Shown piece after piece: positions 1-26,184 of a DNA stretch of 64,000 nt. This stretch comes from an uncultured Gammaproteobacteria bacterium. Its GTDB lineage: Bacteria; Patescibacteriota; Patescibacteriia; UBA1558; GWA2-36-10. A program made the translations under genes and the position numbers. The notes below the pieces were generated by a model. It was not told the origin of the DNA, searched no databases, and was given only the letters and a program-made list of their open reading frames with translations. Where the stretch lies: assembly GCA_964638415.1 (NCBI GenBank), contig CAZWYP010000004.1:8498-72497 (forward strand). Reading direction: 5' to 3'. Every line of letters begins with the position of its first letter. Position 1 is the first letter of the stretch.

Positions 1-814
1 GGTCAAATAAAATTAAACTATTATTATGACGATTAATACCATACAAAATTCCGTCATCAGAAGTGAGCTCACTGGAGACAAAAGGAAAACTGGAGGCAAT
101 CGGCGAACTATTCATATTGGTAGAAATCGTCAGCTCATCATTACCCAATGGCAAGGTGGAGTTAAAACCCTGTTCAGTCTGGAATAATGCCTGCCTGGTA
201 TAAATCAGCTGTGCTCCTAGTAAATTTTCTACCCGGGAAGAAGATAATTCTAATTCCTCTTTAGTCTTAGCGTAAATGGTAATATATAACCCGAATTGGA
301 AAAACTTTTCCGTGCCCTGGCTTAAGCGGTCCCGCAAGTCTTCAATGTCACGTAAAGCGGTTTCAGCAATTGGATCCCTGGGTGCTCCCTTTTCATTATC
401 TGCAATAATTTGCGCCTGCATAGTACCAACTTTATTGCGCAATTGCTTAAGCACAATGGTAATATCCATGGGATAAAAGAACATCGCCATATCCAATACT
501 AATGATTCATTAATAATGGGGGCAAACCAGCCAACGGTCACATAACGGGGATAAGTAATAACAAATAGCGTCTTAACAAAAACATTATTAAGCTGCAAAG
601 AATTGCTTTCTACTTTAAAAGCCGCTGGAGCAATAACATCTCTAACTGATACCACGCCCTCTCGAAATACTTTTTCCGCTTCCAATAGAGAGCGGTCTTT
701 TTGCTCTTTGGCCTGCTCTTTGACTTTAGCTAATTTCTTATCTGGAGCAACTGTGGCTTCTTCGGAAAGACCTGGCTGAGCAGTAGCTTTTTTTAGCTTA
801 TTAAACTCAAACAT
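1..814 (-). CDS. VirB4/TrbE/CagE-family type IV secretion ATPase, N-terminal part (partial; continues past the window start, before the Walker A region)
   Basis: Own translation of the minus strand from ATG at 814..812, open to position 1. Motifs DVIAP..F.....L.LNNVFVKTLFVITYPRYVTVGWF...LDMAMFFYPMD and GILYGINRHNNSLILFD match the conserved N-terminal and central region of Gram-positive VirB4 homologs (PrgJ/TcpF/Orf16-like) just upstream of the P-loop. Not in the ORF track because it runs off the edge. Its ATG overlaps the stop of the upstream gene (ATGTTTGA). Confidence 0.7.
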   Translation of the reverse strand, partial: MFEFNKLKKATAQPGLSEEATVAPDKKLAKVKEQAKEQKDRSLLEAEKVFREGVVSVRDVIAPAAFKVESNSLQLNNVFVKTLFVITYPRYVTVGWFAPIINESLVLDMAMFFYPMDITIVLKQLRNKVGTMQAQIIADNEKGAPRDPIAETALRDIEDLRDRLSQGTEKFFQFGLYITIYAKTKEELELSSSRVENLLGAQLIYTRQALFQTEQGFNSTLPLGNDELTISTNMNSSPIASSFPFVSSELTSDDGILYGINRHNNSLILFD

Positions 815-1493
815 CTGTTTCCACTCTTAATTTTCTTATATCATCCAATGGTTCGCGTTGGAATAAATCGGGATTATAACTATTGTAGTACAATTCAATC
901 AAAGCCTGCGTATTTAGACGCTGCGAACTCAACCCTAGACTGGTTAGACCGGCGGCAATAAAACTGCAACGTTTATCCAGCTCCGCGCTCATTTCTGCAA
1001 AACGTTTGCGAGATAATTTAACTACTTTGGCCGTGGAAAAAACCGCACTCATCCGGCTGGTAAATTTTTTCTTACTATCACCAGCTTCGCTGTAAGGCAC
1101 TACTACAAAAAACTTCTTGCTCATAATTTTCTCCAAAGTCAGTAATTCACTGATAAAAGAACGATACTCACTAATTTGCATGCGCAATAATTCATTGGTG
1201 TGTTCTCTTTCCACTTTCTTCAACTTATTAAGATAATCATCAATATTCAAAGGACGAGATTGTACTACAATCTGCAAAGGGTAATTCAAAGTATTCAAAA
1301 ACCCGACATAAGAGTTAATCATCGCGGCCTGCTCATCTTCAGATTTTAAATCAAAATTAATGGAGGAAACCAATAACACTCCCCTCACTGAAGCGTCATT
1401 TAAAATAACCAAATCCTCCTTAATGGCGGCAATATCCAAATACTTTTGTGTCGAGGTCTGCAATTTATTCCCAGCTATTTTTTTATTTTTCAT
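807..1493 (-). CDS. Hypothetical T4SS-associated protein (pattern resembles the extreme N-terminal domain of Gram-positive VirB4-like ATPases)
   Basis: 228-aa ORF between the PrgI-like gene and virB4-like gene. Segment DIAAIKEDLVILNDASVRGVLLVSSINFDLKSEDEQAAMINSYVGFLNTLNYPLQIVVQS resembles the start of VirB4 family proteins. The 8-nt overlap with the next gene suggests translational coupling. The homology call is from memory only. Confidence 0.35.
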   Translation of the reverse strand: MKNKKIAGNKLQTSTQKYLDIAAIKEDLVILNDASVRGVLLVSSINFDLKSEDEQAAMINSYVGFLNTLNYPLQIVVQSRPLNIDDYLNKLKKVEREHTNELLRMQISEYRSFISELLTLEKIMSKKFFVVVPYSEAGDSKKKFTSRMSAVFSTAKVVKLSRKRFAEMSAELDKRCSFIAAGLTSLGLSSQRLNTQALIELYYNSYNPDLFQREPLDDIRKLRVETDV

Positions 1494-1956
1494 AATTCAC
1501 GCTGTTAAAAGGTGATTTATTGGCCCGATTGGCTTCCAATTCTCCCTTATATATTCCTCCCGTATCAACAATTAAAGACAGTTCCGACAACTTACTCGTT
1601 GGCAAAAAAGCCTTGGGTTTAACCAATTGATTATTATCCTCACTTTCCACCTGACGCTCCTCAAATTTAATTTCCTGTTTTAACCAAATTCTCAATTTGG
1701 GCTTTTTAGAAGTCTGAATGACATTAAGCAAGAAAACATGAAACGGCGCTCCGTTTATTTTGATAAAAGCGAATAAAATAGTCAGAAAAGCAAAAATAAT
1801 AAGCTGAACGATAAACAAAGCAAAGTCCGACAATTTGTAAGCAGCAAAAACAAATAAACCGCCGATGATCATAATAATAAACTGCCGGACGGTCACTGGT
1901 CCAATAATCTTATCTTCTGCATCAATAAATTGGGGAACAATAAAACGATCCTGCAT
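1483..1956 (-). CDS. PrgI/VirB3-like small two-TM membrane protein of type IV secretion systems
   Basis: 157 aa. N-terminal VPQFIDAEDKIIGPVTVRQFIIMIIGG followed by two hydrophobic helices, typical of the PrgI family (PF12666-like). Sits immediately upstream of and overlapping the virB4-like genes. Confidence 0.5.
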   Translation of the reverse strand: MQDRFIVPQFIDAEDKIIGPVTVRQFIIMIIGGLFVFAAYKLSDFALFIVQLIIFAFLTILFAFIKINGAPFHVFLLNVIQTSKKPKLRIWLKQEIKFEERQVESEDNNQLVKPKAFLPTSKLSELSLIVDTGGIYKGELEANRANKSPFNSVNYEK

Positions 1957-1957
1957 A

Positions 1958-3322
1958 TTAGAATCTCAATAATTTATTTAAATCGGAAATAGAAGCGAAT
2001 TCTTCAATTGTTAAAGTATTCTCTTTATTATTCAGCTTCTCCCTAATAATATTCTCCACGTCTTTGCCCTGGCTTAAGCTTTCTTCGCCCAAAGACAGAT
2101 ACAGCTGGTAAACCGGGCTACGGCGCCAACCTTCAATACCTTGGGCTTTCTTAGTGATTGAGTCTTTTTCCAAAACATTAATCTTCTGCAATAATTTATC
2201 TATTTGCTGACGGGAAGAACTGCCTAAACGACGGAACTTATCTAAATCTAAAGACTGCAATTCTTCAATCGGACCGGTTAAAGTTGCCTTGGGAGCGGCG
2301 ACGCTAGAAGAGTAAATAGGTTGGGAAAAAACTTCCTTTTCCTTAGTGACTTTCACATCACTTACTGGCTTTTTATCGCCAGCGCCAACGCGGAAAACTT
2401 TAGGCAAGGCTGCTTTAATTTCATCTTCTGGCTTTTTAACTGGAGCTGGAGAAACTTTAACCTCTGCTTTTGGCTTAGGTTTTAAAGTTTCCAACTTCTG
2501 AACAGTTTTCAAGATAGGCTTTAAATCAGCATCATTCTCATCAGCGTCCGCCAATTCATTACCAGCAGCTTTTGCAAGTTCATCTGTTGATAAAGCAGAT
2601 AATAATTTTTCTACCTCTGCTTGAGTTTTTTCCTGTGGCTTACTTGGCGGTAATTCCTTGTTTAAATCCGCTTCCAATTCTGCCACTTCATTAGGCAGAG
2701 CCTTCGCTTTACTGACCACTGGATGATTTGCCTGCTTAACAGCTAACTCTGCCATTTTAACCACTAATCCGCCGCCGACTTCAATCTTAGCTTTAATGCT
2801 TTTGACAATCCCTACGATATTATTAACCTGCTCTTCGGTTAAAATCTTGCCATTAGACTCTATCCTTTCCGACAACAGCTCTCTAATAATAATGGCATTG
2901 CGCCGATTACGGAAAAAATCAAATAAGATATCCGTAAACTTATTCTTAGTGTCTGCAGAAAATTTTAGTTTTTCCTGATCAATCAATTTATCTACTATCT
3001 TTTCAATGCTATATTTGCGGGAATTATCCTGGGGAATATCCTTAACTAAACTAGCCACCTCCTCTTCATCATCAGGGTGAAAACCGAACTTAGCCTTATC
3101 TTGGCTATTGCCCAATTTGGGCAAATCCAAAAAATGCTCATTGTCTGGAGCTAAAGCCGGCGCCATGATTTTTAAAGATAAATCAGTGTGTTGAGTCAAG
3201 GCTGTACTTTTTGTTGGTCCGCTTTTATAACGATGCAGCTGGCCGCTTTGCTCTTTAACCAAAATATTATCTGTCCAATTATCAGATAATGGGTGGGAAT
3301 TGGCTTGATTATTATTTGGCAT
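1958..3322 (-). CDS. Hypothetical protein (low-complexity, K/E/A-rich, no TM)
   Basis: 454-aa ORF abutting the PrgI-like gene (2-nt gap). No recognizable motif. Confidence 0.4.
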   Translation of the reverse strand: MPNNNQANSHPLSDNWTDNILVKEQSGQLHRYKSGPTKSTALTQHTDLSLKIMAPALAPDNEHFLDLPKLGNSQDKAKFGFHPDDEEEVASLVKDIPQDNSRKYSIEKIVDKLIDQEKLKFSADTKNKFTDILFDFFRNRRNAIIIRELLSERIESNGKILTEEQVNNIVGIVKSIKAKIEVGGGLVVKMAELAVKQANHPVVSKAKALPNEVAELEADLNKELPPSKPQEKTQAEVEKLLSALSTDELAKAAGNELADADENDADLKPILKTVQKLETLKPKPKAEVKVSPAPVKKPEDEIKAALPKVFRVGAGDKKPVSDVKVTKEKEVFSQPIYSSSVAAPKATLTGPIEELQSLDLDKFRRLGSSSRQQIDKLLQKINVLEKDSITKKAQGIEGWRRSPVYQLYLSLGEESLSQGKDVENIIREKLNNKENTLTIEEFASISDLNKLLRF

Positions 3323-3440
3323 TGAATTTTTTTGTTTTTGATTAAATCAACTCCTTAAACAGGGCTAAATCGCTACTGAACTTTGTGTATATTATAACAT
3401 ATTTTAGCAACCGCAACAAATATTTACAGGATAAATAAAA

Positions 3441-3488
3441 AACATCCCTAAACCATTGTTTATTTACCCTGATTTAAGGATGTTTTTA
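3441..3488 (-). terminator. Candidate intrinsic terminator / structured element downstream of efp
   Basis: 10-bp perfect stem AAAAACATCC/GGATGTTTTT with a large (~30 nt) loop, followed by a T-run on the minus strand, 8 nt after the efp stop. Confidence 0.35.
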
Positions 3489-3495
3489 AAATTAC

Positions 3496-4053
3496 CTAGG
3501 CTCGAGAAACGTATTCTCCAGTCTCAGTATTAACGATTATCTGGTCTCCGGCCTTAACAAACATCGGTGTTCGAATTTCCGCGCCGGTTTTCAAAGTAAC
3601 AGTTTTAGTAACCGCGCCAGAGCTGTTGCCTTTGACGCCCTCGGGGGCAGAATCAACTTCACAAACTATCTTAGTCGGCAAACTAACAGAGACTGGATTA
3701 TCATTAAAAATGAGCACATCCACTTCCTGGCCATCAGCCAGAAACTTGGCCGCTTCGCCAATAGCTTCCTGGCTGAATTGAAATTGCTCAAAATTAGTAT
3801 TATCCATAAAAAAGAAATCATCTCCTTCACGGTATAAAAAATTAGCTTGGCGATGCGCTAAATCAGCTTCTTCCGCTGAATCAGAAGCAGAAAAAGTCTT
3901 TTCCAGAGTAGCGCCGGTAATTAAATTCTTCAGCTTGGTTTTCAATACTGCTCCACCCCGGGCTACTTTAATATGCTGGGTAAAAACAATCTGATAAGGA
4001 TTGTTTTCCAAAACAATTACCCTACCCAGCTTTAATTCGCTCATTGACAGCAT
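3496..4053 (-). CDS. efp: Elongation factor P
   Basis: Translation LKLGRVIVLENNPYQIVFTQHIKVARGGAVLKTKLKNLITG...GEYVSRA matches EF-P over its whole length. Probable start is ATG 4053 or 4044; the track start at 4098 is likely too long. Confidence 0.85.
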   Translation of the reverse strand: MLSMSELKLGRVIVLENNPYQIVFTQHIKVARGGAVLKTKLKNLITGATLEKTFSASDSAEEADLAHRQANFLYREGDDFFFMDNTNFEQFQFSQEAIGEAAKFLADGQEVDVLIFNDNPVSVSLPTKIVCEVDSAPEGVKGNSSGAVTKTVTLKTGAEIRTPMFVKAGDQIIVNTETGEYVSRA

Positions 4054-4057
4054 AAAT

Positions 4058-4276
4058 CTATTTGTTGCCAAAAGGCAATAAAGCCATATGACGAGCACGT
4101 TTAATGGCTTGGGCTAATTTTTTCTGGTGCTTAGAACAAACTCCACTACGTCTCTTGGGAACAATCTTGCCATAAGAGGAAGTGAATTTTTGCAATTGTT
4201 GCCAATTCTTGTAATCTATCTCTTCCATGCTGTTAACACAAAAATGGCAATATCTAGAATTAATTTTCTGATGCAT
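4058..4276 (-). CDS. rpsR: 30S ribosomal protein S18
   Basis: CHFC..EIDYKN...[35 protein letters not shown] is a typical bS18. Last gene of an rpsF-ssb-rpsR order. Confidence 0.8.
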
Positions 4277-4296
4277 TTTATTATATTTATAGTTTT

Positions 4297-4743
4297 TTAA
4301 AATGGGATATCTTCCACGCTAATTTCTTCCTCCGCCGCATTATTATTGACAGGAGCTGGATTAACCGGCTCCGGCTGACTGTAATCTGAACTGGTAGTAT
4401 TCCCGCTGTTTTGGTTCTGACGATCAAGCATGATTAGGTTTTCAGCGATAATCTCCGTACGATAACGCTTAATGCCATTAGGATCATCCCAAGATCTGGT
4501 TTGCAAACGGCCCTCCACATAAACCTTACTGCCTTTTTTTAGATACTGGCCGGTAATTTCCGCCAACTTTCGCCAGGCAACAATATTATGGTATTCTACT
4601 TTTTCCTGACGCTGCCCATTCTGATCATTCCAAACCAAATTGGTAGCTACAGAAAAAGAGGTGACATTTTGACCGCCGGGAGTGCTCCGCATTTCTGGAT
4701 CGCGGACCACATTACCGATGACCATTGCTTTATTTAAATTCAT
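4297..4743 (-). CDS. ssb: Single-stranded DNA-binding protein
   Basis: OB-fold motif [28 protein letters not shown]...[13 protein letters not shown]...[12 protein letters not shown] and the acidic C-terminal tail ending DIPF. Confidence 0.9.
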
Positions 4744-4780
4744 AGGATTATTGGCGGAAAAATTCCTTTCCGCTATTAAT

Positions 4781-5245
4781 TTATTGCTCCTCTGCTAAAA
4801 TTTTATCTAATTTCTTGTCCAAATCTTCCAGATTAATGGCAACTGGCTCTGCTTTAGTAACAGGCTTAACCGGCTTAGGTTGGCTTTTTTGCTCTTTCAT
4901 AGCCAATTGCACTCGCTTGTCTGCCGGCTGTCGGCGAACTTTTTTTACTGCTGGTTCTGGTCTAATATTGATAATTAGATGACGCAAAATATTGTGATTG
5001 TGGCTTAAAAAAGTGTCCAATTCGCGCAAAAATTTCTTATCTTCCAAGGCAAATTCCACGGCAGTATAAAATCCGTGTTTTTGCTTCTTGATAGCATAAG
5101 CCAGTTTGCGCCGGCCCAAAGAATAAGGCGCTTTAATAATTTGCGCTTGGTATTTTTCCAGCTGAGACATGATCTCGCTGGTCAAAGCTGGGTGCTCCGT
5201 TTCCGGTACCACAGCAGAAATAATGAAGGTTAACTCATAATGCAT
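4781..5245 (-). CDS. rpsF: 30S ribosomal protein S6 (with C-terminal extension)
   Basis: MHYELTFIISAVVPETEH...GRRKLAYAIKKQKHGFY matches bS6. First gene of rpsF-ssb-rpsR. Confidence 0.85.
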   Translation of the reverse strand: MHYELTFIISAVVPETEHPALTSEIMSQLEKYQAQIIKAPYSLGRRKLAYAIKKQKHGFYTAVEFALEDKKFLRELDTFLSHNHNILRHLIINIRPEPAVKKVRRQPADKRVQLAMKEQKSQPKPVKPVTKAEPVAINLEDLDKKLDKILAEEQ

Positions 5246-5291
5246 GAGCTGTTTTCCTTTCTAAAAACCCTGAAAAAATAGTGTTTCAAGG

Positions 5292-5315
5292 ACTAAGATT
5301 AAAATTAATCTTAGT
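5292..5315. promoter_or_regulatory. Perfect 24-bp palindrome (ACTAAGATTAA-AA-TTAATCTTAGT) in the divergent rpsF / methyltransferase intergenic region
   Basis: Read directly: 11-bp arms with a 2-nt spacer. Two copies of GGCTATTTAAAT lie nearby at about 5318 and 5381. Candidate operator or terminator. Confidence 0.3.
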
Positions 5316-5458
5316 GTGGCTATTTAAATAAGGAACGAAACTTTGCTTAATTTAACATAAATATATAAACTAGTCAACTGGGCTATTTAAATGCTTGATT
5401 TATTCACTAAATATCTGCTTAATTGATAAAATTACCATTTAGCTTTATTATTAAGTCT

Positions 5459-6610
5459 ATGAAATACTTATTTATCTTGGGACAGTCCCCGTCTCTAGCC
5501 AAACAGGAGATAATCTCCCTGCTGCCAGAAGCTAAAATAGAATTATCTGGAGATAATTTTGTGGTACTAGATACCAAGGAATCTGCGGAATCATTAATGT
5601 CAGTTTTAGGCGGCACAATTAAAATTGCTTCTTATATAAATATTGTAAAAGATCTTAGCAAGATAACAGTAGAAGATTGGAGCAAGTGGCTTGATAAAAA
5701 CCAAGGGCAGAAAATAAATTTCGGCTTCAGCCTTTATGGCGGCAGCAAAAAAAACCAGCAGCAGCTGAATAAACTAGCTCTGCAAGTAAAAGGAGCTTTA
5801 AAAAGCGAAGGATATAAAGTCCGCTTAGTAGTCAGCAAAGAGTTAATTTTGTCTTCAGTAATTGTCAGTAAAAATAAATTACTGAAAAATGAGCTGTTGC
5901 TTATTCACACTGCCCAAGGCTGGGTCATGGGTTTAACCCAAGCAGTGCAGGACTTTGTTAATTTCGGTTTTAGAGACATCGGCCGTCCAGAACGGGATGA
6001 TCAAAGCGGCATGCTGCCACCTAAGGTAGCCAGAATGATGATTAACCTAGGCGGAGCTGATCGCCAAAAAACTATACTAGACCCTTTTTGCGGTTCCGGT
6101 ACAGTTTTGCAGGAAGCAGCTCTCTTGGGCTTTCCTCAAATCTATGGCAGCGACAAAAGCCATGAAGCTGTTCATGATGCTCAAGCTAATCTAGAATGGC
6201 TTAAACAAAAATTTAACATCAATAGTGAGATAACTATTAAAAAAATAAATGTAGTTAATCTAAATCAACATTTTAATGCTAATTCTGTGGACTTAATTGT
6301 CACCGAACCGTTTATGGGACCAGCCCGGCAGATCCAAAAACAATTTAAACTGGAGTATTTCCTACAATTAAAAAATGAGCTTAGTGACCTTTACCTTACG
6401 GCTTGGCAACAGTTTAATAAAATACTAAAACCAGGTGGCTTAGTGGTTTTTATCTTTCCGGTGTTTAACTTAAAAACCGGGGACATCCACACTTTAGACG
6501 AAAAAAATATTACCAAGCTTGGTTTCTCCTTAAAAAATAAAATAGTCTACTCCCGTCCTCAACAAAAAGTAAGAAGAGAAATAACTTACTGGCAAAAAAA
6601 CCGCGACTAG
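5459..6610 (+). CDS. SAM-dependent RNA (guanine-N2) methyltransferase of the UPF0020 / THUMP-associated family (RlmL/Trm11-like)
   Basis: Motif I LDPFCGSGTVLQEAALLG preceded by MLPPKVARMMINLGGA. Motif IV variant VTEPFMG. ATG at 5459; the track start at 5423 is TTG. Confidence 0.65.
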   Translation: MKYLFILGQSPSLAKQEIISLLPEAKIELSGDNFVVLDTKESAESLMSVLGGTIKIASYINIVKDLSKITVEDWSKWLDKNQGQKINFGFSLYGGSKKNQQQLNKLALQVKGALKSEGYKVRLVVSKELILSSVIVSKNKLLKNELLLIHTAQGWVMGLTQAVQDFVNFGFRDIGRPERDDQSGMLPPKVARMMINLGGADRQKTILDPFCGSGTVLQEAALLGFPQIYGSDKSHEAVHDAQANLEWLKQKFNINSEITIKKINVVNLNQHFNANSVDLIVTEPFMGPARQIQKQFKLEYFLQLKNELSDLYLTAWQQFNKILKPGGLVVFIFPVFNLKTGDIHTLDEKNITKLGFSLKNKIVYSRPQQKVRREITYWQKNRD

Positions 6611-6618: not shown

Positions 6619-7869
6619 TTAATTTACTGGCTGAACCCAGGCTAATTGATTATTGATATTGCTAATCTCCCGCCATTTTAAGGTATTATCCGTTAAATCC
6701 AGATAAACAACCTGGCCTTCTCCCCCTTGAATATTAGATAAGTAAAACCCTAATAAGGCTGCTTCCGCCTGCGGCAAACGCAATTTATCATTAAGAATAA
6801 GCTCAAAAAACAAACGGCGCCTAATTAATTTGTCAGTAATTTCTACTAAACTTAATTTTTCTCCAAAGCGCACACTAATAAAACGTCTCATAATTCCTTG
6901 AAATCTCTTATCTTCCTGCAGCATTAAGTCTAAGGCTTTCTTTTCAATTAACAACTTAAGGCAGGCCAACGTTTTATCCTGATCTTGAATACCGACTGCT
7001 TGCCATAAAACATCGCGCAATTTATGCAAACTGCCTCCGGCTTCAGATAAAATCAAATCCTCCCCTACTATTTTCTTCTGCCAAACAACCAAACGCTGAT
7101 TAATCTGCTCTAGTATTTCTTCTGTCTTTGGTTGTTCCGACTTTTCTTTGCCTACAACGGTTTTTTCTGGCAACTCTCTGACTTTAACAATAACATCGGA
7201 ATTATCTATTTCTATTGGAGAATCATCATCGTAAGAAATAAAAAAGTTGCGGATACTGCCCTTTTCCTCTTCTGTTAAATCTAAAATATTACGGTCACTG
7301 GATAAATACTTAGCGCGCTGCAATGAGCTATGATAGCCAGCTCCCATCTGTTTAAAATAATCGTTAAGCCAGTTATCTACCGTCGGACTTAATAAATTAC
7401 CTTCCCGGTCAATTATTTTTTTGGAGCTTAAACGCAGATCCTTAAAATCCGGATACTGCTTCAATAATTGTTTGACTGTTCCGGAAATATAATTTGGTAA
7501 AGTGGGGTTTTGCATAGTCCGCTTATGCAGATGCTTCAAATGCGGAACCTTGCCTCCTAAACGTAAAATTAAGCGGTCAACATCTTTTAAATAATCCTGC
7601 AGCGGCCAAAGGATTTTATAGGCAATTTCCAGACATATTTCCCGTAAGTCATAATATTGCGCCCGTTCCATGTTCTCCAATTCGTTAGGCAGATCCAGGC
7701 TAGAAATTTTTTGTAAAAACAACTTTTCTTCCAAGTCTAAAATAAAATCCAACTGATTTCTATTCAACGAAAAACGATCAGCCAGCTGCTGATTGTAATC
7801 CGAAAGCTCGGTACTAAATACCACCTCTTTCACTTCTGGAGGTAAATTTTGTAAACTCTCAATTGGCAT
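6619..7869 (-). CDS. Hypothetical protein (416 aa, soluble) immediately downstream of the VirB6-like gene
   Basis: ORF only. 11-nt gap to the upstream gene. No recognizable motif. Confidence 0.4.
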   Translation of the reverse strand: MPIESLQNLPPEVKEVVFSTELSDYNQQLADRFSLNRNQLDFILDLEEKLFLQKISSLDLPNELENMERAQYYDLREICLEIAYKILWPLQDYLKDVDRLILRLGGKVPHLKHLHKRTMQNPTLPNYISGTVKQLLKQYPDFKDLRLSSKKIIDREGNLLSPTVDNWLNDYFKQMGAGYHSSLQRAKYLSSDRNILDLTEEEKGSIRNFFISYDDDSPIEIDNSDVIVKVRELPEKTVVGKEKSEQPKTEEILEQINQRLVVWQKKIVGEDLILSEAGGSLHKLRDVLWQAVGIQDQDKTLACLKLLIEKKALDLMLQEDKRFQGIMRRFISVRFGEKLSLVEITDKLIRRRLFFELILNDKLRLPQAEAALLGFYLSNIQGGEGQVVYLDLTDNTLKWREISNINNQLAWVQPVN

Positions 7870-7880: not shown

Positions 7881-10646
7881 TTAACTGGACTGTCCTCTAC
7901 TCCTCTGACTATTCCTGTTTTGATTGGCAGTTGCATTTCTAAAAGCTTCATCAGTACCAGCGACTATTCGGCCGCCCTGCGCTTGCCCGCCAATTCCGGA
8001 AACCTTCAAGCTGTTCTGCATTGTTTCTGACAAATCACTAAAGACTGCTTCCAAATCGCTTTTATCAATCTTTAAAGCTTGGGTGCTGCTTAAAGTATTA
8101 ACGAATTGAGCGAATTCTCTCTTGGCATCATTATTGGCAAATAATCTGACCTGATTACCATTAGCATCGCTTCCATTAATTTTACCAAAGGCTTCTCCGG
8201 CAAATTGCAAATTATTCTTAGCCAGCTGATTACGACGATTCTTCTGCTCTAATTTAATTTTTTCTTCATCAATTGAAGCATCACCGCCATTAGCTTGAAT
8301 GCTTTTAACCCTGGCTTCTTCTTCAATTTTAACCATATTTATCTGATTCTTAAAGCTGGCCGCCACATCTTCTGCTTTAACATACTGACGAGTAGCAACA
8401 TTAGTAGCTAGGGCTTCAATATTATTACCAGCTTTCACCTGGGCTTCAATTACCATCTTAGTGCGCTCTTCATTACCACCTCTTTCAGCAACAGCATTAA
8501 CTTTAGACAAAGGCAAGTAAGGAGCAATGGCCTGAATAACCCGCTGATCTTCCGGGGAATCTTTCATTTCCAATAAATCATCATCTTTAATATTGCGAGC
8601 CAGCTGCGGAGCAAACTGTTTTAGTGTCGCTTCCCGGCGATTAGCAATAATTTCTTTCTCTTCAACGCTCTTACCATTGTTCATCTCGTGATCCGGATTT
8701 AAATCCTCTCTCTTATTTACTTCTTCCAAAACACTGCTCATGGCTTTAGAATTAACTGAGGATAGTTTGTAAGCTTGATGATCTTGATTTACTTCATAAC
8801 TACCATCATTATTCCTAACCAACAAAGATCGGTCTGCTTTTTCTTTGCCGGTATTTTCTTCAGCTGTACCAAATAAGTTCTTATTAGCATGGGCAATTAG
8901 CGCCTGATTCCACCTATCTTGAGTAGTGCGAGTTTTCGCAGACAAAAACTTCTGCTGTTCACCAGCTTTGAAATTTTTAAACTGCTCAACAACCAAGCGG
9001 CCGCCTTCATTTAAATTGCCCTCGTGATCAAATAATGTTTCCGGATCAATATTATTAAATGCCGCCAAGCCTTGTTCTTTAGCCGCTGCTTCCGCTGAAT
9101 TCTTGCCATCACTGCTAATAGAGTGGGCCATGGCATTAGTGCTACGCACTTTTTTGATCATTTCCCCATCACCTACGCGCTGTGCCTCTTTAATAACATC
9201 ATTAACCATGTCTAGGTTATCTTGATGTCCTTGAATAGTTGTATTTTTATCTTTATCAAAAACATTATTATTATCCACCCTGGTCTTGTATTCATTATAA
9301 CGATAACCCGGTCTGCCTTCATAAAATTTCTGACGATCCTCTGGATTGCTAATATTCTTCTCTGCCCACTTTGTGGTAAATTTACCGGCTTCGTGCCTTT
9401 TAGCTCTTTCAGTTTCTGCCGCCTTAAACGCTATGCCTGCAGAAACCAAAGGCTTAATGCCTGTTTTTTGCAAACTAGCACCCAAGCCAGCTCCTGCTTT
9501 GCCGGCTAAAGCCACTGCTCCGCCATAGCCGCTGGAACCGGCCACCATGGTTTTACCTACCCGGCGGTACCCAGCGCTGACCTTTGACTTCATGCCAGAG
9601 GCTAATTTGGAGCCAACCGCGCCGGCCGCTGCGCCAAAAGTCTGAGTAACTTTCAAAGAACCCACCAGCATGGCAATGCCGACAATATATTTAAGAATAT
9701 TTTCCCAACCACCAGAACCGGTAATACCTATTTGGCCAATAGCATCTGCTTCTTCTTTTGTCTGGTCGCCAATTACCAGGTTTCCTTGAACAAAATCCTC
9801 ATTAACCTTACCAGATCCGACAATCATAAAAGTAAGCCACAGGAAGAAAGCCAGCATTGGCCCGACTAGTAATTCCTTGGTCAGCATATCTACCCAGCGC
9901 TGGAAATAACTCTCTCCTCTAGGCAAGGTATTAGCCAAGAAAGCAATCGGTGAAATAACAATAATAATCCAGAGCATTACTATTCTAGCTACCAAAATTA
10001 CAATAAAAGCCATTAGGACAATACTGGCTATTACCACCATAATGCCGCCTAATAAATAACCTAAAACAATCTGGCCAACTACGTCTCCGCCGCTTTCATT
10101 AGGACCGCTGCCGGCTATTTTAACTAATTCATCTAAGCCTAGTGCCGCCGTAACATTGCCATAAACCACATCTTTCCAAGCACTAACCATGGTTAACATT
10201 ATGACCTGGAACAAATCAATAACCACTCCGACTAAGGTGCGGCTAAAATTAACCAGAATAGCCATGATAATCAACCGCCTCAGCATCTGCCGATAACCAT
10301 AATTCTGGATTTTCAGAATAGTGCCGAATGCCATTACCAACAAGACTACGATAAACAGCATATTCACTAAATCACGAGCTGCGATCCAGCCGGCCTGCAC
10401 TCCCGCCTGATTAGTAAAATTATTATACTGGGCAACAATCGGTAAAAGCAGCATTTCTACTTTTAACAGTAAGATGAAAGGCCAGAAAAACAAATAAAAC
10501 AAAGTGCGACCGATTGCCTGGCCAATCCAAGAGCTAATTGTTCCCCCATCATCAGCGGCTTGAATAATATTGGGGACAAAGAAAGCAACTAAGGCAATGG
10601 CAATAAAGATTAACCAGAACTTATTTTGAATTTTTATAGTTCTCAT
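7881..10646 (-). CDS. VirB6/TrbL/TcpH-like polytopic membrane protein with a long hydrophilic C-terminal extension
   Basis: 921 aa. N-terminal signal-like segment, at least 6 hydrophobic helices in the first ~300 aa, then a ~600-aa charged/coiled tail ending in a Gly/Gln/Ser/Arg-rich tip. This architecture is typical of T4SS VirB6-family channel proteins. Sits 4 bp downstream of the giant secreted protein gene. Confidence 0.5.
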   Translation of the reverse strand: MRTIKIQNKFWLIFIAIALVAFFVPNIIQAADDGGTISSWIGQAIGRTLFYLFFWPFILLLKVEMLLLPIVAQYNNFTNQAGVQAGWIAARDLVNMLFIVVLLVMAFGTILKIQNYGYRQMLRRLIIMAILVNFSRTLVGVVIDLFQVIMLTMVSAWKDVVYGNVTAALGLDELVKIAGSGPNESGGDVVGQIVLGYLLGGIMVVIASIVLMAFIVILVARIVMLWIIIVISPIAFLANTLPRGESYFQRWVDMLTKELLVGPMLAFFLWLTFMIVGSGKVNEDFVQGNLVIGDQTKEEADAIGQIGITGSGGWENILKYIVGIAMLVGSLKVTQTFGAAAGAVGSKLASGMKSKVSAGYRRVGKTMVAGSSGYGGAVALAGKAGAGLGASLQKTGIKPLVSAGIAFKAAETERAKRHEAGKFTTKWAEKNISNPEDRQKFYEGRPGYRYNEYKTRVDNNNVFDKDKNTTIQGHQDNLDMVNDVIKEAQRVGDGEMIKKVRSTNAMAHSISSDGKNSAEAAAKEQGLAAFNNIDPETLFDHEGNLNEGGRLVVEQFKNFKAGEQQKFLSAKTRTTQDRWNQALIAHANKNLFGTAEENTGKEKADRSLLVRNNDGSYEVNQDHQAYKLSSVNSKAMSSVLEEVNKREDLNPDHEMNNGKSVEEKEIIANRREATLKQFAPQLARNIKDDDLLEMKDSPEDQRVIQAIAPYLPLSKVNAVAERGGNEERTKMVIEAQVKAGNNIEALATNVATRQYVKAEDVAASFKNQINMVKIEEEARVKSIQANGGDASIDEEKIKLEQKNRRNQLAKNNLQFAGEAFGKINGSDANGNQVRLFANNDAKREFAQFVNTLSSTQALKIDKSDLEAVFSDLSETMQNSLKVSGIGGQAQGGRIVAGTDEAFRNATANQNRNSQRSRGQSS

Positions 10647-10650: not shown

Positions 10651-13600
10651 TTATTCTTCCGGCTCGTAAATAACTATCCAGCCAGCATATGGCCAATTAG
10701 CTGACTGATTCCAATTATCTGTCACTGTTAATACCGGCTTATAGCACTGGGCATTGAAAATATTAGGCGCGGTAGGATCTGAAGCGTGTATGGCTGAACA
10801 AATATTACTTTCATTATCCTCATCCCAAACATAGAAATGGAAAAATGATTTATACCCTTCATGGCAGGCGCCGGTAGTGCCGGCAAAACCCATCAGCCTA
10901 GTACCGCTTAAACCTGGAGCATTCTGATTGGGGTCGCAGTCAAATAAATTATTCTTATACTTGCTATTCGGCAAACCGCCGCTAATGTCTCCATCTCCCC
11001 AATTAACCCGCAAATCGGTGATCGGCATATGATCGGGATGAGCGTGGTAATAGAATTTAATGGCCGCAAATAAATTACCTTCATCGCCGACAATTTCAGA
11101 GTCGTCATTCTTATTATTTACCGTAATACCCTGTGCTGGAGCAATTAAACCATTATTGTCGCAATAACGGCTGCCACAGACCTTGAATACTCTAGGTAAA
11201 TAATCTGGGCCAGCAAAAGAATTAGTGTAGCCAGAAGAAAGATCGGTAATTGTATTATTAGTATACTGTGACCCATTCCAATTTAAATTATATAATCGGG
11301 CAAACAATTGTCTTAATTGGGCATCTGCCTGGCCAGGATTAGAATTATCAGCAAAGAAAATAGAGGATGCTCGAGGTTCAAAATATCTTTGATTTAAAGG
11401 TGCTTCTACCACAATTATTTCTTCATTGGCCAATCCTTGATCACCGCCAAAGAATGGACCAACTGTAGTTGATTCAACCCGACTAAAACCAATATTAGTA
11501 TCATTAGGATAACAACAACCTTCACGAAGATAATATGCTCGCCATGTTCCCATGTGGTCATCATCTGCTTGTGGCGTAGTCGCATTATTAGCTGCTCGCC
11601 ACCAAATATCTGTACGTAACCAAGACTTGCTATGATCGCCTTCAGCATCTATAACATTAATTGTGCTACATTGTTTATAACAACCATCATCACCACCTGG
11701 ACAGCTAAAAGTCCCATTTACTCCAGAAGTGTATATCCCCCCGGGAGCAACGCAGTTAAGGTCTCTGGTGGGATTACCCATACAACCGGAGACATTCCTA
11801 TAAATAAAATCGCCATCGCTAATACCGTATGCTTCTAAGCGCATTTGCGGAGTAATTAAATCATAATACTGCTGGCTACAACCAGCGCCGCCAACTACCA
11901 CCGGATTTCTATGCAATAAATAATCCCAATAACTTACATAATACTCTGTGGAAGTGTTATGGTAAGATTCACAATAATTAGTATTAAAACCATATCCATC
12001 ATTATTAATAATGGCACCAGCATGTAAAACACAGTGTGCAAACTTGCAGTCATTATCCTCACCACAACCTGAATTATCTTCAGGATCCATGCTAGCTATA
12101 TTGTAATTTGTAGCAACCTGATTGAATCTACCGCCTAAATTAGTCAAGCAGGAAGCAACTGATGCGCCACAATTAGTAATCTGGCAAATCTGTCCAGGAT
12201 TATATTCTCTACTAATATAATAATTATAAGTCCGGGGGTTACAAACTACAGTACAGTCATCATAACGACGGCCACCACAAATATCACCGCTACGGCAATA
12301 CCATGATGCCAAGTGCATATTTCTTGCCCCGGAAGAACAGCGAGAACCGGTGCCTAAAACAATATCTTGAGCACAATCAGCATTACCACACAATCCCTCT
12401 CTACAATCACCGCCAGTTAAATTTATACCCCTTGGACTATCCGCAAAACCTTCCCTGGCTTGACCATGTAAGACCGTTGGTATGCTTCCTCCATTACTAT
12501 TACCGTCTGGAGATACTCCTGAATCAAAGAAGTAAACCTTCAATTGTTGACTACTGTGAGAAAATAAACTTTGAATATCCTCAAGATAATTTGCAGTTAA
12601 ATTGGCGTTAGAGTAGTTAAAATCAGCAGCCGAATATCTCTGATTACTCGGTGGATTACCATAGATTATTGGATTACCCACATCCGCAGGAGCGGCCTCA
12701 AAAACATACTCACCTGTTAATTTCCAATGTCGCCCAGTGCCATCTGATGGACTATCGTCTACCAAGTTACTATAATATCCTGCGCCATGAGCAAAAATAT
12801 TTGAACCAGCAGGAATTTGGACTAAAACATTACAAAAACCATCTCGCCAAGTAGCACAATATAATCTATCCTCAGTTAATAAATATGGTTCGGTTAATTT
12901 ACAAATATTAACATCCTGCCCAGCTGGATTATAGAAACCAGCTTCCACAAAATGATTGAAGCGGCTTTGCGAACCGATTATCTGCTCGCTAGGATACCAC
13001 TGATTGCAATAATAGCTCTGTTTAAAATCACTCTGAATTAAAGTGGAAGTATCCGGTTGTAGGCAAATTCCGCTCCAGTTAATAAAATCTTCTACTTTAG
13101 TGATTGATTCACAGCGGCCATTTACACCGCAACTGTCATTATCTATAGCATTATCATTATCTCCAATATCTTCAGGGTTACAGGAGTCTCCTTCTTTTTT
13201 ATCCAACTGCAGTTGCTCATCTACCACGCTACAAACACCAGCCGCATAATTGCCGGCGTTAAAATCTTTATATCCGTAATAACGCACTAAGCTGCCTAAG
13301 CCATAAGTCACTTTCTTATAGCGAGGTTCACAACCATTTTCTCCATCCTGACAAACATTCGCCTGATTATACTTGCTCTTTAAGACAAAAACATCTCCTT
13401 CTCCACCTTTAATACTCTTGGGGAAAGGCGCTTGCTGAGCAGCATAACCGCGAGTAGCTAAGCCATATTCGCTCTGATTAATCGTGGGACTGCCTGTCGG
13501 ATTAAGCCAACAAACCGAATCCTTGCAAATACCGGCATAGCCAGATACGCTGCAAGTTAAATTATCCCGTCCATCGCAAATACCTTCCGGCTGAATATCT

Positions 13601-16600
13601 GAAGCATCATAAACTAAGCGTGGATCATTATATTCAGTAGTAGTCGCAAAGTCATAAACCTGCAAGCTACGCAGAGGGAATAAATCTGGAACTGAATATC
13701 CAATATATTCCTTGTCTGACCATTGAATATGTTCATTGATACCACTCACTCTATCTTGGTATTCCGTCACTGTTAGAGGACTATCTGGAGTATAAGTCGC
13801 CCACTTGCGGCATTGGGTAATATTACTGGTTGAAGAATATTCCACGCAGCTGTCTAAAGCGTCACAAATCATCTCATATTGAGAAGTATCTTCGTTAAAA
13901 ACTGCAGTTAATGACTTACAAGCCAGCCATTCCGCACACTGGCGATCCTTGTTAACCTTCACAATGCGGTTAGCATCAAGAATTGCTCCGCCGCCGCCAG
14001 TATCCGGATTCACCGGCTTATTGAGCGCTACATTATTATTGTAAGTTACTTCCGTATCATAAAGCTTGATTACTTCCGTGTGATCAGCATTCCAATTATT
14101 GGCATCATAAACCAGAATACAGCCGGTTTGCTGATCAACCTGCCCATTGCAGCTTCCGGCTTCTATTTTTTCATTATCATAATAATAATATGACTGGCAG
14201 TCCGGCACATCAGGATCACTGTTGCTATTGTCAAAATCACAATTCAAAGGATCAGCTGGATCTACAAAAGTAGTGCAGAGATTCTTATTTTCCGGACACA
14301 TGGCCGACCAGCCAAACGGCATTTCCGGCTCCCGACCAGAAGCGCATAATTCCGGCGTGCCGCTGGTTAAGCTATCTGTTTCAAACCAGCCATCAATTAA
14401 ATCTCCGTCAATATTAACATCTTCCTGGTAACTGCAAGTCTTATTGCCCGGATCGCGGAAATAATAAATCCCCTTGCTAGAACTAAATGCTTCGCAATAC
14501 AAATCTTCAGAACGGCATAAAGTATTTTCATACTGATCAGGATTATTAAGCTTATATACTGTATCAAAACCAGTAACTACATTCTCTACCCGATCAATTT
14601 CTGGCAAGCCTAAAGCCATACATCCCTTATAGGCAGAAGCGCAATATTTATCTACATCTGGCACTAAATAAGTGACGCTATCTGCTGCTACTGCCAATTG
14701 AGAATAATCTCCCGTATTAAAAGTCTGAGCAAAAGGATTGGTAGAATTATGAGTTGCAATTACCGCCTGACAGCCGATCGCTTCCTGACGGCATAAGCTG
14801 GTAAATGATTTTAGATTATAGTTTTCGCCATTAGTATCCCGGTAAGCTTGGCAACCTAAGTAAGCACCGGCAAACGGATTATCGCAAGAAGCCGGAGTCT
14901 GCCAAGAATTACGGACATAAGACAAACTGTCTACTAATTCTTTAAGGATAAAATTATCTAAATAAATTGACCCCGTGCCATTGGTACCAAATCGCAAAGT
15001 AACATTGCCGGTTAAATTAGTTAGCGGATTAGATGTTATTTCATAACGATTCCACTGGCCGCCGGAGATGGTATTAATATTGCCAACTAAAGCGGAGTGG
15101 GTGCCGTCAGTAAAGGAAACCACTATGGAATCAATAGTGCCTTCATTCTTCATCCAGAAAGACAATTGGTAACTCTTATTATTCTGGATATTAGCAACCG
15201 GGCGGCTAATGCCGGTAAATCCGCTGGGCGATGAAACCCGCATAGAGTGGCCGCCATTGGCTAATGACTCATTGGACAAATCAATAGCAGTACCACCTTC
15301 GGCATACCAAGGATCATAACTGCCGTTTTCAAAATTATCCGTAAATAAACGCCGCTGGTTATTGGCTGCTGCTCCGGTATAAGCCCGGCAACCGGCAAAT
15401 TGAGCTTGGCAAGTCTGACTTAAATCGGGAATTGCCTGATACTCCTGCCCAGTAAAGGTGCGGCGGTAAGGATGACAATTGTTATCGGCAAAAATTACCC
15501 TATCACTCAAACGGTAATGATCTTCACCGTTAATGTCAAAATATTGGCGACAATTAATATCAAATTCCGGATCATCAAAAGGATCTTCAGTTTCTGGACC
15601 GCAAGCAGCCGTAGCATGAGCGTTTTCTCCCAATGGATCATAAGGCTCATCCACGCAAGTATTACCGCCGGGGTCTACATTAGTACAAGGCGCATCATTA
15701 AGATTGCTTTCTAGGAAATTAACTGTCTGCAACTGGTAACCGGCCACATCCGATCCCTGCCAAGTATAATAAGTGGTGCCGTAGCTTGCCGGCACGCATT
15801 GGCGCAAATAAGTGTAGTATTCCTTGCCTTCCCCGCCTTGCTCTACCTCGTCCAAATTAGTAAACTCCTCGCAACCAATTTCCTGACTAGGGCAGCTCAA
15901 AGCAGTGGTAGGAATAAAATTATAATAATCCGGAAGATTATCTCCCTCAAAGACATCAAAAATATTGGGCTGTTCAGCAAAAGTAGCATAACCAACGCAT
16001 TCTGCCGGACAAATGTCATTGGCGGTAATAATACCAGGCACTAGTGGATCGCCATTAAGAGGCACATAACCACGACAACCTACCTCCTCCTCCACACACA
16101 TAAAGCGATCATTGTCCATTAGAATCCTGCCGCCATCACCGTAAGCGCTGAAGTTTGACGGACCAATATCGTCAACTCGGCGCTCATAACTGAAAGTGCT
16201 AACTTCTTCCACTTTAATATTATCCAAAGTAAATATATTAGCGCCAGAAATCTTGACTTCAATCCGCTGACCTTCAGCATCTTCGCCAAAAGTGCCATGA
16301 ACGACCTGCCGGCTGCCGGCTGGATCTAATTCTCTAAGATAAGCTATACCCCTACTCAAAGGATCACGCTGGTTAATACTGGCATCAATTGTTCCAGTGC
16401 CAGTAGCATCAAAACTCAAGATAAATGAGCGGTTTTTAATATCATAACCAGTATCAATAATTGCCGTAATATCTTCATCAACCTGCACAGTATATTCCAT
16501 ACCGCCACTCCGGCGAGCCGAGCTTACTACTTCCAAATTACCCGTAGTAGTAAAACCCATTATCTGATCGGAATCTCCGTCGTCAGGATCACCTTTAAAC

Positions 16601-18662: not shown

Positions 18663-19457
18663 TTAACTAGCTAAACGATTACGAATGTCTATTAACTCTT
18701 GTTCACTTAAACGATTGATGGCTTCCTTATCTGCCTCTGGCTGATTAAGTAAGAATGTCCGAACTTCTTCCGGGCTTAATTCGGCAAAATCAACTTCTTC
18801 TGAACTTTGATTTTCTTCAGCCCAAGCGGAAACAATAATAATTAACTCTTCATCGGTTAGAGCATCAATTTCCGCTTGCGGCAAACCATTCTCCACCAAA
18901 AAACTTCTTAGTTGATTTAACGTGGCCTGCTGTAAAGTTAAATTGGGATCCAGCGCTACATCCTCTACGACTTCTGCCAATTTAGTATTTGGTGTAATTA
19001 AACGCAAAATATTACAATCCTCTCCCGTTGGACATAAGGGATCGTTGCCGGAATTCGCTTCCTGGTAATCGCTGAAACCATCACTATCAGTATCCGGCAA
19101 AAACATGCTGGTATGGAATTGGTAAACTTCCTGATAATCATTAAGTCCATCTTGATCAGTATCTTTTGACTTCAAATCAGCAATAATTTCCTCCTGGCTT
19201 TGGCCGGAATTGGCAAATTGAGCGGCAATTTCCGGCGGCAACTCATTATCCAAAGGCGCTTGTAATACTTGATACTTAAAATACCAGCCACTTAAAAAAA
19301 TCACACCGGCGCCAAGCAATAAAAATAGCCAAGCGGTTTTCCTTTTCCAAATCAAAGAGCCTTGGCTTGAAGAATAATCACCGGTTAAATAACCGGCAGT
19401 CAAATTCGATTTTTCCGCAAATGAATTTCTTTTATTTTGTGACAAATCTTTGGCCAT
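18663..19457 (-). CDS. Single-pass membrane protein with thrombospondin-type-3 / dockerin-like Ca-binding repeats
   Basis: TM helice WLFLLLGAGVIFLSGWYF. Repeats DTDQDGLNDYQE and DTDSDGFSDYQE. 8 bp upstream of the giant gene. Confidence 0.5.
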   Translation of the reverse strand: MAKDLSQNKRNSFAEKSNLTAGYLTGDYSSSQGSLIWKRKTAWLFLLLGAGVIFLSGWYFKYQVLQAPLDNELPPEIAAQFANSGQSQEEIIADLKSKDTDQDGLNDYQEVYQFHTSMFLPDTDSDGFSDYQEANSGNDPLCPTGEDCNILRLITPNTKLAEVVEDVALDPNLTLQQATLNQLRSFLVENGLPQAEIDALTDEELIIIVSAWAEENQSSEEVDFAELSPEEVRTFLLNQPEADKEAINRLSEQELIDIRNRLAS

Positions 19458-24972: not shown

Positions 24973-26184
24973 TTGCTGATTCTGCCTAGCTACCAATTGT
25001 TTACCCGCCTTAAAAAGAAAGTAAAAATTGTTAAAAAAACAGAAATAAAGTATCTGCTGTTTATTAAAAAATACGCTGCCCGCATTCTAATCTTCCTGAT
25101 TGTCTTAATCGTCACTACCAATAATATCTTCGCCAAAGGCTATAGCCCGGATGAAATTACCAATAAAAGTCTGTTGATAAAAATAGTCTCTCCGCCGGAA
25201 GAAAGATTCAATGAATTGATTGAAGAGGAAAGTAGCAGTGCCAGCGCTCCTTTAGCTATAAACTATGCTACTGAGCAGGGTAACTTGCAGGAAAATGTCA
25301 TTACCACTCCTTTTCCGGAAGATCCGGTTATTGCCGAGAATAATAATGTTTCTCCGGATGCTTCCAGCTTGGTGATGAATGAGCCTCTAGAAGAAGGCAG
25401 CGGCGACGCAGTAATTACCGACCGGACAGAAACTGTTGAATATACCGTGCAGGAAGGCGATGTTTTAGGCGCTATTGCCGAAAGATTTGAAATCAGCGTT
25501 AACACCATCCTCTGGGAAAACAATCTGACCTGGAACAGCACTATCCGTCCCGGCCAAAAACTGCGCATTCCGCCCGGCACCGGTATCAGTTATACCGTGG
25601 CCTCTGGCGATACAGTTTTGGGCATTGCTAAAAAATACCAAGCTGATGCCGACCAGATTATTAATATCAATAAATTAGCCAGCGCTACCGACATTAAAGC
25701 GGGACAAAAGCTTTTTATTCCTAATGGTATTAAACCGACGCAAGTCACTTCTTCTTACAAGCCACGTACTGCACCTACTTATGAGCCAAGACCAACTGTT
25801 ACGGAAACACCAGTGGATAGTGGTGCTAAATTGCTATGGCCAACTGACAGCCAGCGCATTACCCAGTATTTCAGTTTGCGCCATACTGGCTTAGATATTG
25901 GCAATAAAACCGGCAATCCAATTTACGCAGCGGAAAGCGGCAAGGTGGAAAAAGCCGGCTGGAATAGTGGCGGTTATGGCAACTATGTGATTATTAACCA
26001 TGGCAATGGCTTAACCACTCTTTATGCTCATGCCAGTAAATTATATGTCTCCGCTGGTGATACTGTAGCCAGAGGCGATCTAATTGCCGCCGTCGGTAAC
26101 ACTGGACGCTCTACCGGTCCCCATTTGCACTTTGAGGTTAGATCTAATGATAGTCGGACCAATCCGTTAAACTATGTGAAATAA
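24973..26184 (+). CDS. Membrane-anchored peptidoglycan hydrolase: 2x LysM + M23 (LytM-type) metallopeptidase
   Basis: Two LysM repeats (YTVQEGDVLGAIAERF..., YTVASGDTVLGIAKKY...). C-terminal M23 motifs HTGLDIG, YGNYVIINHGNG, GNTGRSTGPHLHFEV. The frame has no upstream ATG before the TM helix, so the start is TTG 24973 or another non-ATG codon. Confidence 0.8.
   Translation: MLILPSYQLFTRLKKKVKIVKKTEIKYLLFIKKYAARILIFLIVLIVTTNNIFAKGYSPDEITNKSLLIKIVSPPEERFNELIEEESSSASAPLAINYATEQGNLQENVITTPFPEDPVIAENNNVSPDASSLVMNEPLEEGSGDAVITDRTETVEYTVQEGDVLGAIAERFEISVNTILWENNLTWNSTIRPGQKLRIPPGTGISYTVASGDTVLGIAKKYQADADQIININKLASATDIKAGQKLFIPNGIKPTQVTSSYKPRTAPTYEPRPTVTETPVDSGAKLLWPTDSQRITQYFSLRHTGLDIGNKTGNPIYAAESGKVEKAGWNSGGYGNYVIINHGNGLTTLYAHASKLYVSAGDTVARGDLIAAVGNTGRSTGPHLHFEVRSNDSRTNPLNYVK

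Follow-up and report, generated by a model that had tools for sequence, protein, structure and literature searches.

A two-gene VirB4 ATPase and a PrgI-like protein as the probable start of the energising core of a chromosomal type IV secretion system in Patescibacteria

The DNA analysed here is a stretch of 64,000 nucleotides (nt) from contig CAZWYP010000004.1 (assembly GCA_964638415.1), which we call the window, and our subject is the group of genes at its edge (positions 1..1956), which resemble part of a type IV secretion system (T4SS). A read-out of open reading frames (ORFs) found three tightly packed ORFs on the minus strand of this region, at the places given in a preliminary description of the DNA, and the longest plus-strand ORF there is at most 66 amino acids (aa) long. 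In the direction of transcription the three genes encode a PrgI/VirB3-like protein, a TrsD-like protein of 228 aa and the beginning of a VirB4-family ATPase, whose frame is open from its ATG at 814 to base 2, where it leaves the window (all coordinates are collected in Table 1). The 228-aa gene and the ATPase gene share the sequence ATGTTTGA (8 nt, read 814..807), as had been described; the ATPase ATG occupies 814-812 and the TrsD-like TGA occupies 809-807. The PrgI-like and TrsD-like genes overlap by ATGAAAAATAA, and an overlap of the same 11 nt is present in the called genes of a related locus, L004. Ahead of the three genes, a gene for a 454-aa protein stops one base before the PrgI-like ATG.

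The 157-aa product of the first of the three genes had been described as a PrgI-type protein with two transmembrane (TM) segments, and this identity is borne out by its match to Pfam PrgI (PF12666; 4.9e-10, 40.2 bits with a cutoff of 27, profile positions 3-90 of 91). A hydropathy scan detected two hydrophobic helices, at approximately residues 21-45 and 47-65, together with a C-terminal tail of about 65 aa. The protein thus shows the features that mark the PrgI/VirB3 family, which are a score above the gathering threshold, two TM helices and a position beside virB4. We surveyed 84 loci, namely 80 from GTDB species representatives and the loci L001-L004; tblastn gave a match to the PrgI-like protein in 76 of them, and in the three loci inspected with coordinates (L002-L004) its gene is located directly upstream of the TrsD-like gene.

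The ATPase fragment inside the window scored above the cutoff with CagE_TrbE_VirB (PF03135; 25.7 bits, cutoff 21) and matched the NCBIfam family conju_CD1110 over profile positions 159-409 (3.9e-30). The sequence motifs VIAPAAFKVESNSLQLNNVFVKTLFVITYPRYVTVGW and GILYGINRHNNSLILFD, which had been put forward as diagnostic of VirB4, are both present, although the dot spacing that had been written for the first of them is merely approximate. The P-loop domain lies outside the window, and its recovery, which the preliminary description had called for, was achieved with an 8.9-kb contig, L001, obtained by exact look-up of the 228-aa protein. L001 matches window positions 1..1914 with 0 mismatches and carries on for 7 kb beyond position 1. 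In full, the ATPase has 634 aa (L001 1101..3005), and its off-window part contains Walker A (SGAGKS, in ATSGAGKSY) and Walker B (ILVVDEAW, in RILVVDEAW) motifs. These motifs, together with the above-cutoff VirB4 and PrgI scores, are the opposite of what had been named as speaking against the assignment, namely the lack of a significant family match or a continuation devoid of Walker A/B. The 634-aa protein scored 350.5 bits with conju_CD1110 (NF045971; cutoff 325, profile positions 160-730 of 752) and 117 bits with the proteobacterial-type family TIGR00929 (cutoff 643). Its Pfam matches were P-loop_TraG (1.1e-28), AAA_10 (1.2e-10) and DUF87, and the closest solved structure was the C-terminal domain of VirB4 in PDB 4AG5 (1e-47). 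The N-terminal domain is incomplete, since the CD1110 alignment begins only at position 160. We conclude that the 634-aa protein is a VirB4-family ATPase of the monoderm CD1110 type, for which ATP hydrolysis and a hexameric state are predicted. Its homologues in related loci are 46-86% identical, and the named metagenome-assembled genomes (MAGs) from which they come are Patescibacteria.

The missing part of the ATPase is supplied by the 228-aa protein. This protein matched the NCBIfam profiles VirB4_plasma (positions 90-254, 1.1e-10) and TrsD/TraD (5-143, 6.2e-9), and further aligned to CD1110 (27-137) and PRK13853 (9-140). No significant match was found in the local copy of Pfam; a precomputed annotation, which carries no score, places the TraC-like domain PF26593 on the protein and on all 120 of its listed homologues. 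The preliminary description had likened its N-terminus to the first domain of VirB4; the VirB4 profiles support the likeness but not its restriction to the N-terminus, as it covers essentially the whole protein. The two profile alignments are complementary, with the 228-aa protein taking up CD1110 positions 27-137 and the ATPase those from 159-160 onward. The locus therefore has the arrangement by which TrsD is recognised, a standalone homologue of the VirB4 N-terminus directly upstream of a VirB4 without that part. The split version has about 80 residues more at the junction than the profile, which argues for a long independent evolution of the split form. In the structural comparison with the VirB4 N-terminal domain that had been proposed, Foldseek was run with an AlphaFold2 model of low confidence, and each of the top 11 PDB matches was to a TrwK/VirB4 chain from the R388 T4SS (best match: prob 0.99, E 1.1e-2, TM 0.46, 191 columns). 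We regard this fold match as weak and supportive, not decisive. By its profile positions, the 228-aa protein is equivalent to the first 200 or so residues of VirB4. Because the N-terminal domain of R388 VirB4 spans residues 15-400 (PMC9259494), the 228-aa protein corresponds approximately to the first half of that domain, and the 634-aa protein to the second half plus the ATPase domain. As judged from these alignments, the TrsD-like protein and the 634-aa ATPase together make up one complete VirB4.

Two ORFs that overlap out of frame and add up to a full VirB4, and that have fused counterparts in other lineages, could also be explained by a recent frameshift in one VirB4 gene, either as a pseudogene or as an assembly error. 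We consider this explanation scarcely credible in view of the homologues and of the junctions between the two genes. The 228-aa protein has 2066 homologues in a 90%-clustered database, and the best 120 of these are all standalone proteins of 197-234 aa with 60-100% identity. Over more than 100 clusters of equal length, the standalone protein shows 60-89% identity. A HMMER search of 50%-identity representatives returned 2178 matches, of which the best 150 were all standalone but one. The listed homologues are almost all 200-450 aa long, and the extra length in representatives of the family is almost always low-complexity sequence. Named records among the closest homologues are Patescibacteria MAGs; other labels include uncultured Gammaproteobacteria. 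The possibility that longer homologues (300-480 aa) are PrgI-TrsD fusions was considered and rejected: nine of the ten inspected had either Gln/Pro/Ala/Thr-rich extensions or a fused ATPase (P0242), and the tenth, P0261, has a hydrophobic region at its N-terminus.

Both genes were present in 77 of the surveyed loci, and 74 of these retained two ORFs. The junction was -8 in 20 loci, where ATGTTT is followed by GA, AA or AG to give the stop codon TGA, TAA or TAG; it was -1 (TAATG) in 19 loci, -4 in 4 and 0 in 2, and the rest were mostly +1 to +10 nt. Altogether, 65 of the 74 two-ORF loci had a junction between -8 and +10 nt. The open stretch of the ATPase frame ahead of its ATG was counted for two loci, the window and L002, and is just four codons long in both. 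The junction thus takes five or more forms, in all of which the start and stop codons are intact, and the assemblies are independent; this excludes a frameshift artefact and is consistent with translational coupling. The additional residues at the junction also argue against a frameshift, as does the independent assembly of the same sequence (L001), which is identical. The earlier claim of two separate proteins rather than a frameshifted pseudogene is therefore upheld, and we regard the split as stable and under selection.

In the remaining three of the 77 loci (L066, L074 and L079) the two parts are joined in single ORFs of 794-811 codons that contain no ambiguous bases. The fused protein of L074 aligns in a single stretch with VirB4 of TIGR00929 (4-725), and P0242, an 898-aa fusion with a Pro/Ala-rich linker, does so with VirB4_plasma (92-893). 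The fused orthologues, the junction statistics and the weak fold match support the assumption that the TrsD homologue is a detached VirB4 module. No VirB4 homologue was found in the 2-4 kb downstream of the TrsD-like gene in L065, L068, L069 and L080, which are from MAGs labelled Peribacteria. The absence of VirB4 from these loci agrees with the published non-association of TrsD and virB4 in Gracilibacteria.

A system of this kind has been described by Quinonero-Coronel et al. 2025 (PMC12102498). VirB4 was reported in 2,417 of 3,035 Patescibacteria genomes (~80%), where it constitutes a monophyletic clade nested in the class of mating-pair-formation systems termed MPF-FATA. The most abundant companion was a TrsD homologue, which adjoins virB4 in 1,664 cases and is described as a remote homologue of the VirB4 N-terminus with no function assigned; PrgI/VirB3, VirB6 and VirB2-like pilins were widespread. 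The locus in the window matches this description feature by feature. It encodes PrgI/VirB3, a VirB6-like protein (sub-threshold), a VirB2-like pilin and, directly ahead of virB4, the TrsD homologue; it is chromosomal and without a relaxase or type IV coupling protein (T4CP) nearby, and recG adjoins it as in class ABY1, where T4SS loci co-localise with recG, radA and comF. Set against that description, nothing essential differs and the locus is one more instance, except that one pilin gene, whose product carries a Cys-rich extension at its C-terminus, takes the place of a pilin array. The 228-aa protein is accordingly the TrsD homologue already known from that work. We consider it very probable that the energising core of a chromosomal T4SS of Patescibacteria (the candidate phyla radiation, CPR), an MPF-FATA derivative with a split VirB4 and a PrgI anchor, begins in 1..1956. 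This split core is an instance of the phylum-wide system described in 2025 and not a new kind. What is added here is modest and consists of the fused TrsD-VirB4 orthologues, the junction statistics and the weak match to the VirB4 N-terminal fold; in the parts of PMC12102498 consulted, neither the fused forms nor the start/stop overlap is discussed. With a T4SS in about 80% of the surveyed Patescibacteria, the machine would be central to how many uncultivated bacteria live on hosts.

Three better-known systems show where this core is conventional and where it departs. TrsD/TraD and TrsE/TraE of the staphylococcal plasmids pGO1/pSK41 (MPF-FATA subclass, NF041427) likewise combine a small homologue of the VirB4 N-terminus with a shortened VirB4 downstream; however, they belong to plasmid-borne conjugation with a relaxase and a T4CP, whereas the locus here is chromosomal and neither gene is in the sequence seen. 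Full-length monoderm VirB4 proteins, such as CD1110 of a Clostridioides difficile conjugative transposon and PrgJ of pCF10, have the same Walker motifs and a PrgI partner, but the ATPase here lacks the first 160 or so profile positions, which are provided by a separate gene. The structural template is TrwM/VirB3-TrwK/VirB4 of R388 (7O41, 8RTB; PMC9259494); TrwK gave the best PDB matches of the 228-aa model. The R388 system is diderm, with an outer-membrane core, VirB11 and VirD4, and its TrwK is one polypeptide, unlike the split protein here; sequence similarity between the 634-aa ATPase and TrwK is confined to the P-loop domain (2e-7).

The three genes belong to a longer operon whose order is kept in relatives at 64-80% identity: the 454-aa protein, PrgI, the TrsD-like protein, VirB4, proteins of 192, 151 and 408 aa, the pilin or pilins, and then recG or radA. 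In L002-L004 the gene ahead of PrgI encodes a homologue of the 454-aa protein (31-42% identity), and a tblastn match to this protein is present in 58 of the 84 loci. The 192-aa protein, whose gene follows virB4 directly, has a single TM helix, at its N-terminus, and gave a weak NTF2-like match (TcaA_5th, E = 0.03). Its topology is that expected of a VirB8/PrgL-like component. The 241-aa product farther along L001 matched the T4SS pilin family PF18895 (29.5 bits, cutoff 26.6). The gene directly after the pilin gene is recG in L001-L003, on the opposite strand in L001, whereas in L004 it is that of a RadA-like ATPase. Among named MAGs, the closest relatives are Komeilibacteria, Kerfeldbacteria and Parcubacteria, which we take to belong to GTDB class ABY1; this would fit the adjacency of recG. 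Promoter and terminator counts in 1..4200 equalled the shuffled expectation and were uninformative on operon boundaries.

Table 1. Coordinates of the T4SS-related genes, overlaps and fused homologues (window positions unless a locus is named)
Feature	Position	Strand	Remarks
PrgI/VirB3-like membrane protein, 157 aa	1483..1956	-	PF12666 score, hydropathy scan
TrsD-like ("TraC-like", PF26593) protein, 228 aa, soluble	807..1493	-	NCBIfam profiles, homologues, Foldseek
VirB4-family ATPase, first 271 codons; second half of N-terminal domain	1..814	-	profile matches
Start/stop overlap ATGTTTGA of TrsD-like and ATPase genes, 8 nt	807..814	-	read from sequence
Overlap ATGAAAAATAA of PrgI-like and TrsD-like genes, 11 nt	1483..1493	-	ORF coordinates and sequence
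Conserved 454-aa protein, first gene of the operon, without family match	1958..3322	-	no TM helix; Lys/Glu/Pro/Ala-rich centre
192-aa bitopic protein directly after virB4	L001 2995..3573	+	
151-aa membrane protein	L001, downstream of virB4		
408-aa TM-anchored beta-propeller protein (PD40)	L001, downstream of virB4		
Conserved 416-aa protein after the VirB6-like gene, without family match	6619..7869	-	
921-aa polytopic membrane protein, candidate VirB6/TrbL-like	7881..10646	-	sub-threshold TrbL match
2667-aa secreted giant protein, CBM_4_9/CBM_6 modules	10651..18654	-	directly upstream of the 921-aa gene
Fused TrsD-like and VirB4 ORF	L066 3992..6424		MAG labelled Saccharibacteria
Fused TrsD-like and VirB4 ORF	L074 3971..6382		Wolfebacteria
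Fused TrsD-like and VirB4 ORF	L079 3953..6334		Harrisonbacteria

A second conserved block, a few kb upstream, encodes a giant protein, the 921-aa protein and the 416-aa protein. The 921-aa protein has some 6-7 hydrophobic segments within residues 10-277 and a long hydrophilic C-terminal half, and its positional homologue in L002 has a precomputed weak TrbL match. The 416-aa protein is encoded at the same position in L002-L004 (34-55% identity); it and the 454-aa protein, both soluble, are candidates for lineage-specific T4SS components. The giant protein matched CBM_4_9 (30.9 bits, cutoff 25.9), and in L002 and L004 a giant gene (2548-3198 aa) is found in the same position, the pair with the 921-aa gene being kept. 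The giant protein may partner the T4SS at the cell surface or as an adhesin. Two proteins with bacterial thrombospondin type-3 (TSP3) repeats are encoded at 18663..19457 (-) and 26216..27109 (-), one of the genes being immediately upstream of the giant protein gene. Between the two T4SS blocks (3496..6610) are a UPF0020-type methyltransferase gene and rpsF-ssb-rpsR-efp, a stretch that L002 and L003 share and that L004 has in inverted orientation. Housekeeping and other genes in the rest of the window include ksgA, an MFS transporter gene, tsaC, leuS, infB, rny, pnp, gpsA and prs.

One could envisage an integrated conjugative element (ICE) or a plasmid that exports DNA to recipients and has these genes as its mating-pair-formation module. 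The best family matches of the ATPase are indeed conjugal-transfer ATPases of ICEs and plasmids (CD1110, Mbov_0397, TraC), PrgI and TrsD are families of conjugation systems, and the window contains an IS110-family transposase gene (34336..35541, -) as well as a gene for a tyrosine recombinase (48541..49323, +; Phage_integrase and SAM-like domains, possibly XerC/D). No other mobile-element-like gene was seen in the window. In contrast, the flanks are housekeeping genes (rpsF-ssb-rpsR-efp, leuS, infB, pnp, recG) whose synteny relatives share at 60-80% identity; a mobile element would not be expected to show this. We scanned 36 ORFs of the window and L001, mostly those above about 250 aa, against Pfam, and none matched PF02534, PF10412, a relaxase family or T2SSE, so that no coupling protein, relaxase or VirB11 was found among them, in agreement with the preliminary description; every ORF of at least 480 aa in the window and L001 was accounted for. 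In the survey of PMC12102498, just 15 of some 2,400 genomes have a relaxase near virB4. We therefore judge a conjugative export role to be very unlikely. The alternative, a non-conjugative role in host interaction, had been suspected in the preliminary description and coincides with the published view (PMC12102498, PMC12857230). In the Tn-seq study of Wang et al. 2023, as reported in the same two papers, the T4SS cluster, including the TrsD and PrgI homologues, was essential for epibiotic growth of S. epibionticum, and the competence gene comEC was not essential.

A different question is whether the machine is a dedicated importer of nucleic acids, comparable to archaeal Ced/Ted, that brings in host DNA or RNA as a source of nucleotides or for repair and has a functional link to recG/radA. 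The positions of recG (L001-L003) and of the RadA-like gene (L004) after the pilin gene are in line with this idea, but recG is on the opposite strand and its adjacency may be coincidental synteny. There are weak matches to CedB and CedD; however, their scores are far under the cutoffs (55 vs 700), indicating a shared P-loop fold only. PMC12102498 notes the co-localisation in ABY1 and puts forward an import of DNA or other macromolecules, and a 2026 preprint (10.64898/2026.06.21.733656) reports that a cultivated relative, which acquires RNA from its host, has tubular structures, maybe T4SS pili, where the two cells meet. Uptake of macromolecules from the host is at present the preferred hypothesis in the literature. 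Conversely, none of the operon's products was recognised as a DNA-binding or nuclease component, and sequence does not tell in which direction transport runs. We consider a dedicated importer unlikely, albeit less so than conjugation. A more elaborate version, in which fission of VirB4 made a separate adaptor of that half of the N-terminal domain which binds VirB3, and the T4SS with its pilus imports host nucleic acids for RecG/RadA instead of exporting, seems to us a little less likely again.

For the split VirB4 core that we favour, a working scheme can be drawn up by analogy with R388, where VirB3 wraps around the VirB4 N-terminal domain (PMC9259494). PrgI would bind the TrsD-like module and tether it to the membrane, and the module would dock on the truncated ATPase, by which a full N-terminal domain would be rebuilt. 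The start/stop overlaps may favour coupled co-synthesis of PrgI, the TrsD-like protein and the ATPase. The assembled hexameric ATPase would then power the assembly of a translocon and a pilus from other products of the locus, which may be the VirB6-like 921-aa protein, the bitopic and polytopic proteins of 192, 151 and 408 aa, and the VirB2-like 241-aa pilin. A VirB6-based channel and a VirB2-like pilus could contact the host cell, and the machine, as the literature suggests, would serve an epibiotic lifestyle through host-cell contact or macromolecule exchange rather than plasmid or ICE conjugation.

Several results weigh against this interpretation or parts of it. The 228-aa protein scored only 36 bits with TrsD/TraD (NF041427), for which the cutoff is 200, so that its homology to staphylococcal TrsD is remote. 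Its AlphaFold2 model has a mean pLDDT of 58, the Foldseek E-values are just around 1e-2, and a profile of the family found no match among PDB sequences, even at E = 10. It is from gene geometry only that ATGTTTGA is a putative site of translational coupling. With Pfam TrbL, the 921-aa protein scored 18.6 bits, which is below the cutoff of 25.9. The search for conjugation genes covered about 71 kb (the 64-kb window and the 7-kb extension), and a T4CP or relaxase gene may lie elsewhere; in many genomes VirD4-like genes are far from virB4, according to PMC12102498.

Other features of the window bear less directly on the T4SS. A peptidase with an M23 and two LysM domains is encoded at 24973..26184 (+), about 24 kb from virB4; domains of this type have been noted in VirB1-like cell-wall hydrolases of Patescibacteria T4SS loci (PMC12102498). 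The products of three tandem genes at 52347..55671 (-), 363-382 aa long, each have a Laminin_G_3 (ConA-like lectin) domain and in two cases a prepilin N-methylation motif as well; they are probably minor pilins or adhesins associated with type IV pili. At the far end of the window, the edge cuts an ORF (58893..64000, +) that exceeds 1700 codons and whose start resembles a signal peptide. This end is ORF-poor and of higher GC, and an rRNA operon was considered there but ruled out by Rfam; the giant ORF explains the region. The Rfam scan of the whole window detected two tRNAs only and no rRNA. The two tRNA genes are adjacent, tRNA-Ile with the anticodon UAU at 29580..29655 (-) and tRNA-Val (CAC) at 29494..29570 (-). 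Most bacteria decode AUA by means of a lysidine-modified CAU tRNA, and a tRNA-Ile with a UAU anticodon would be uncommon.

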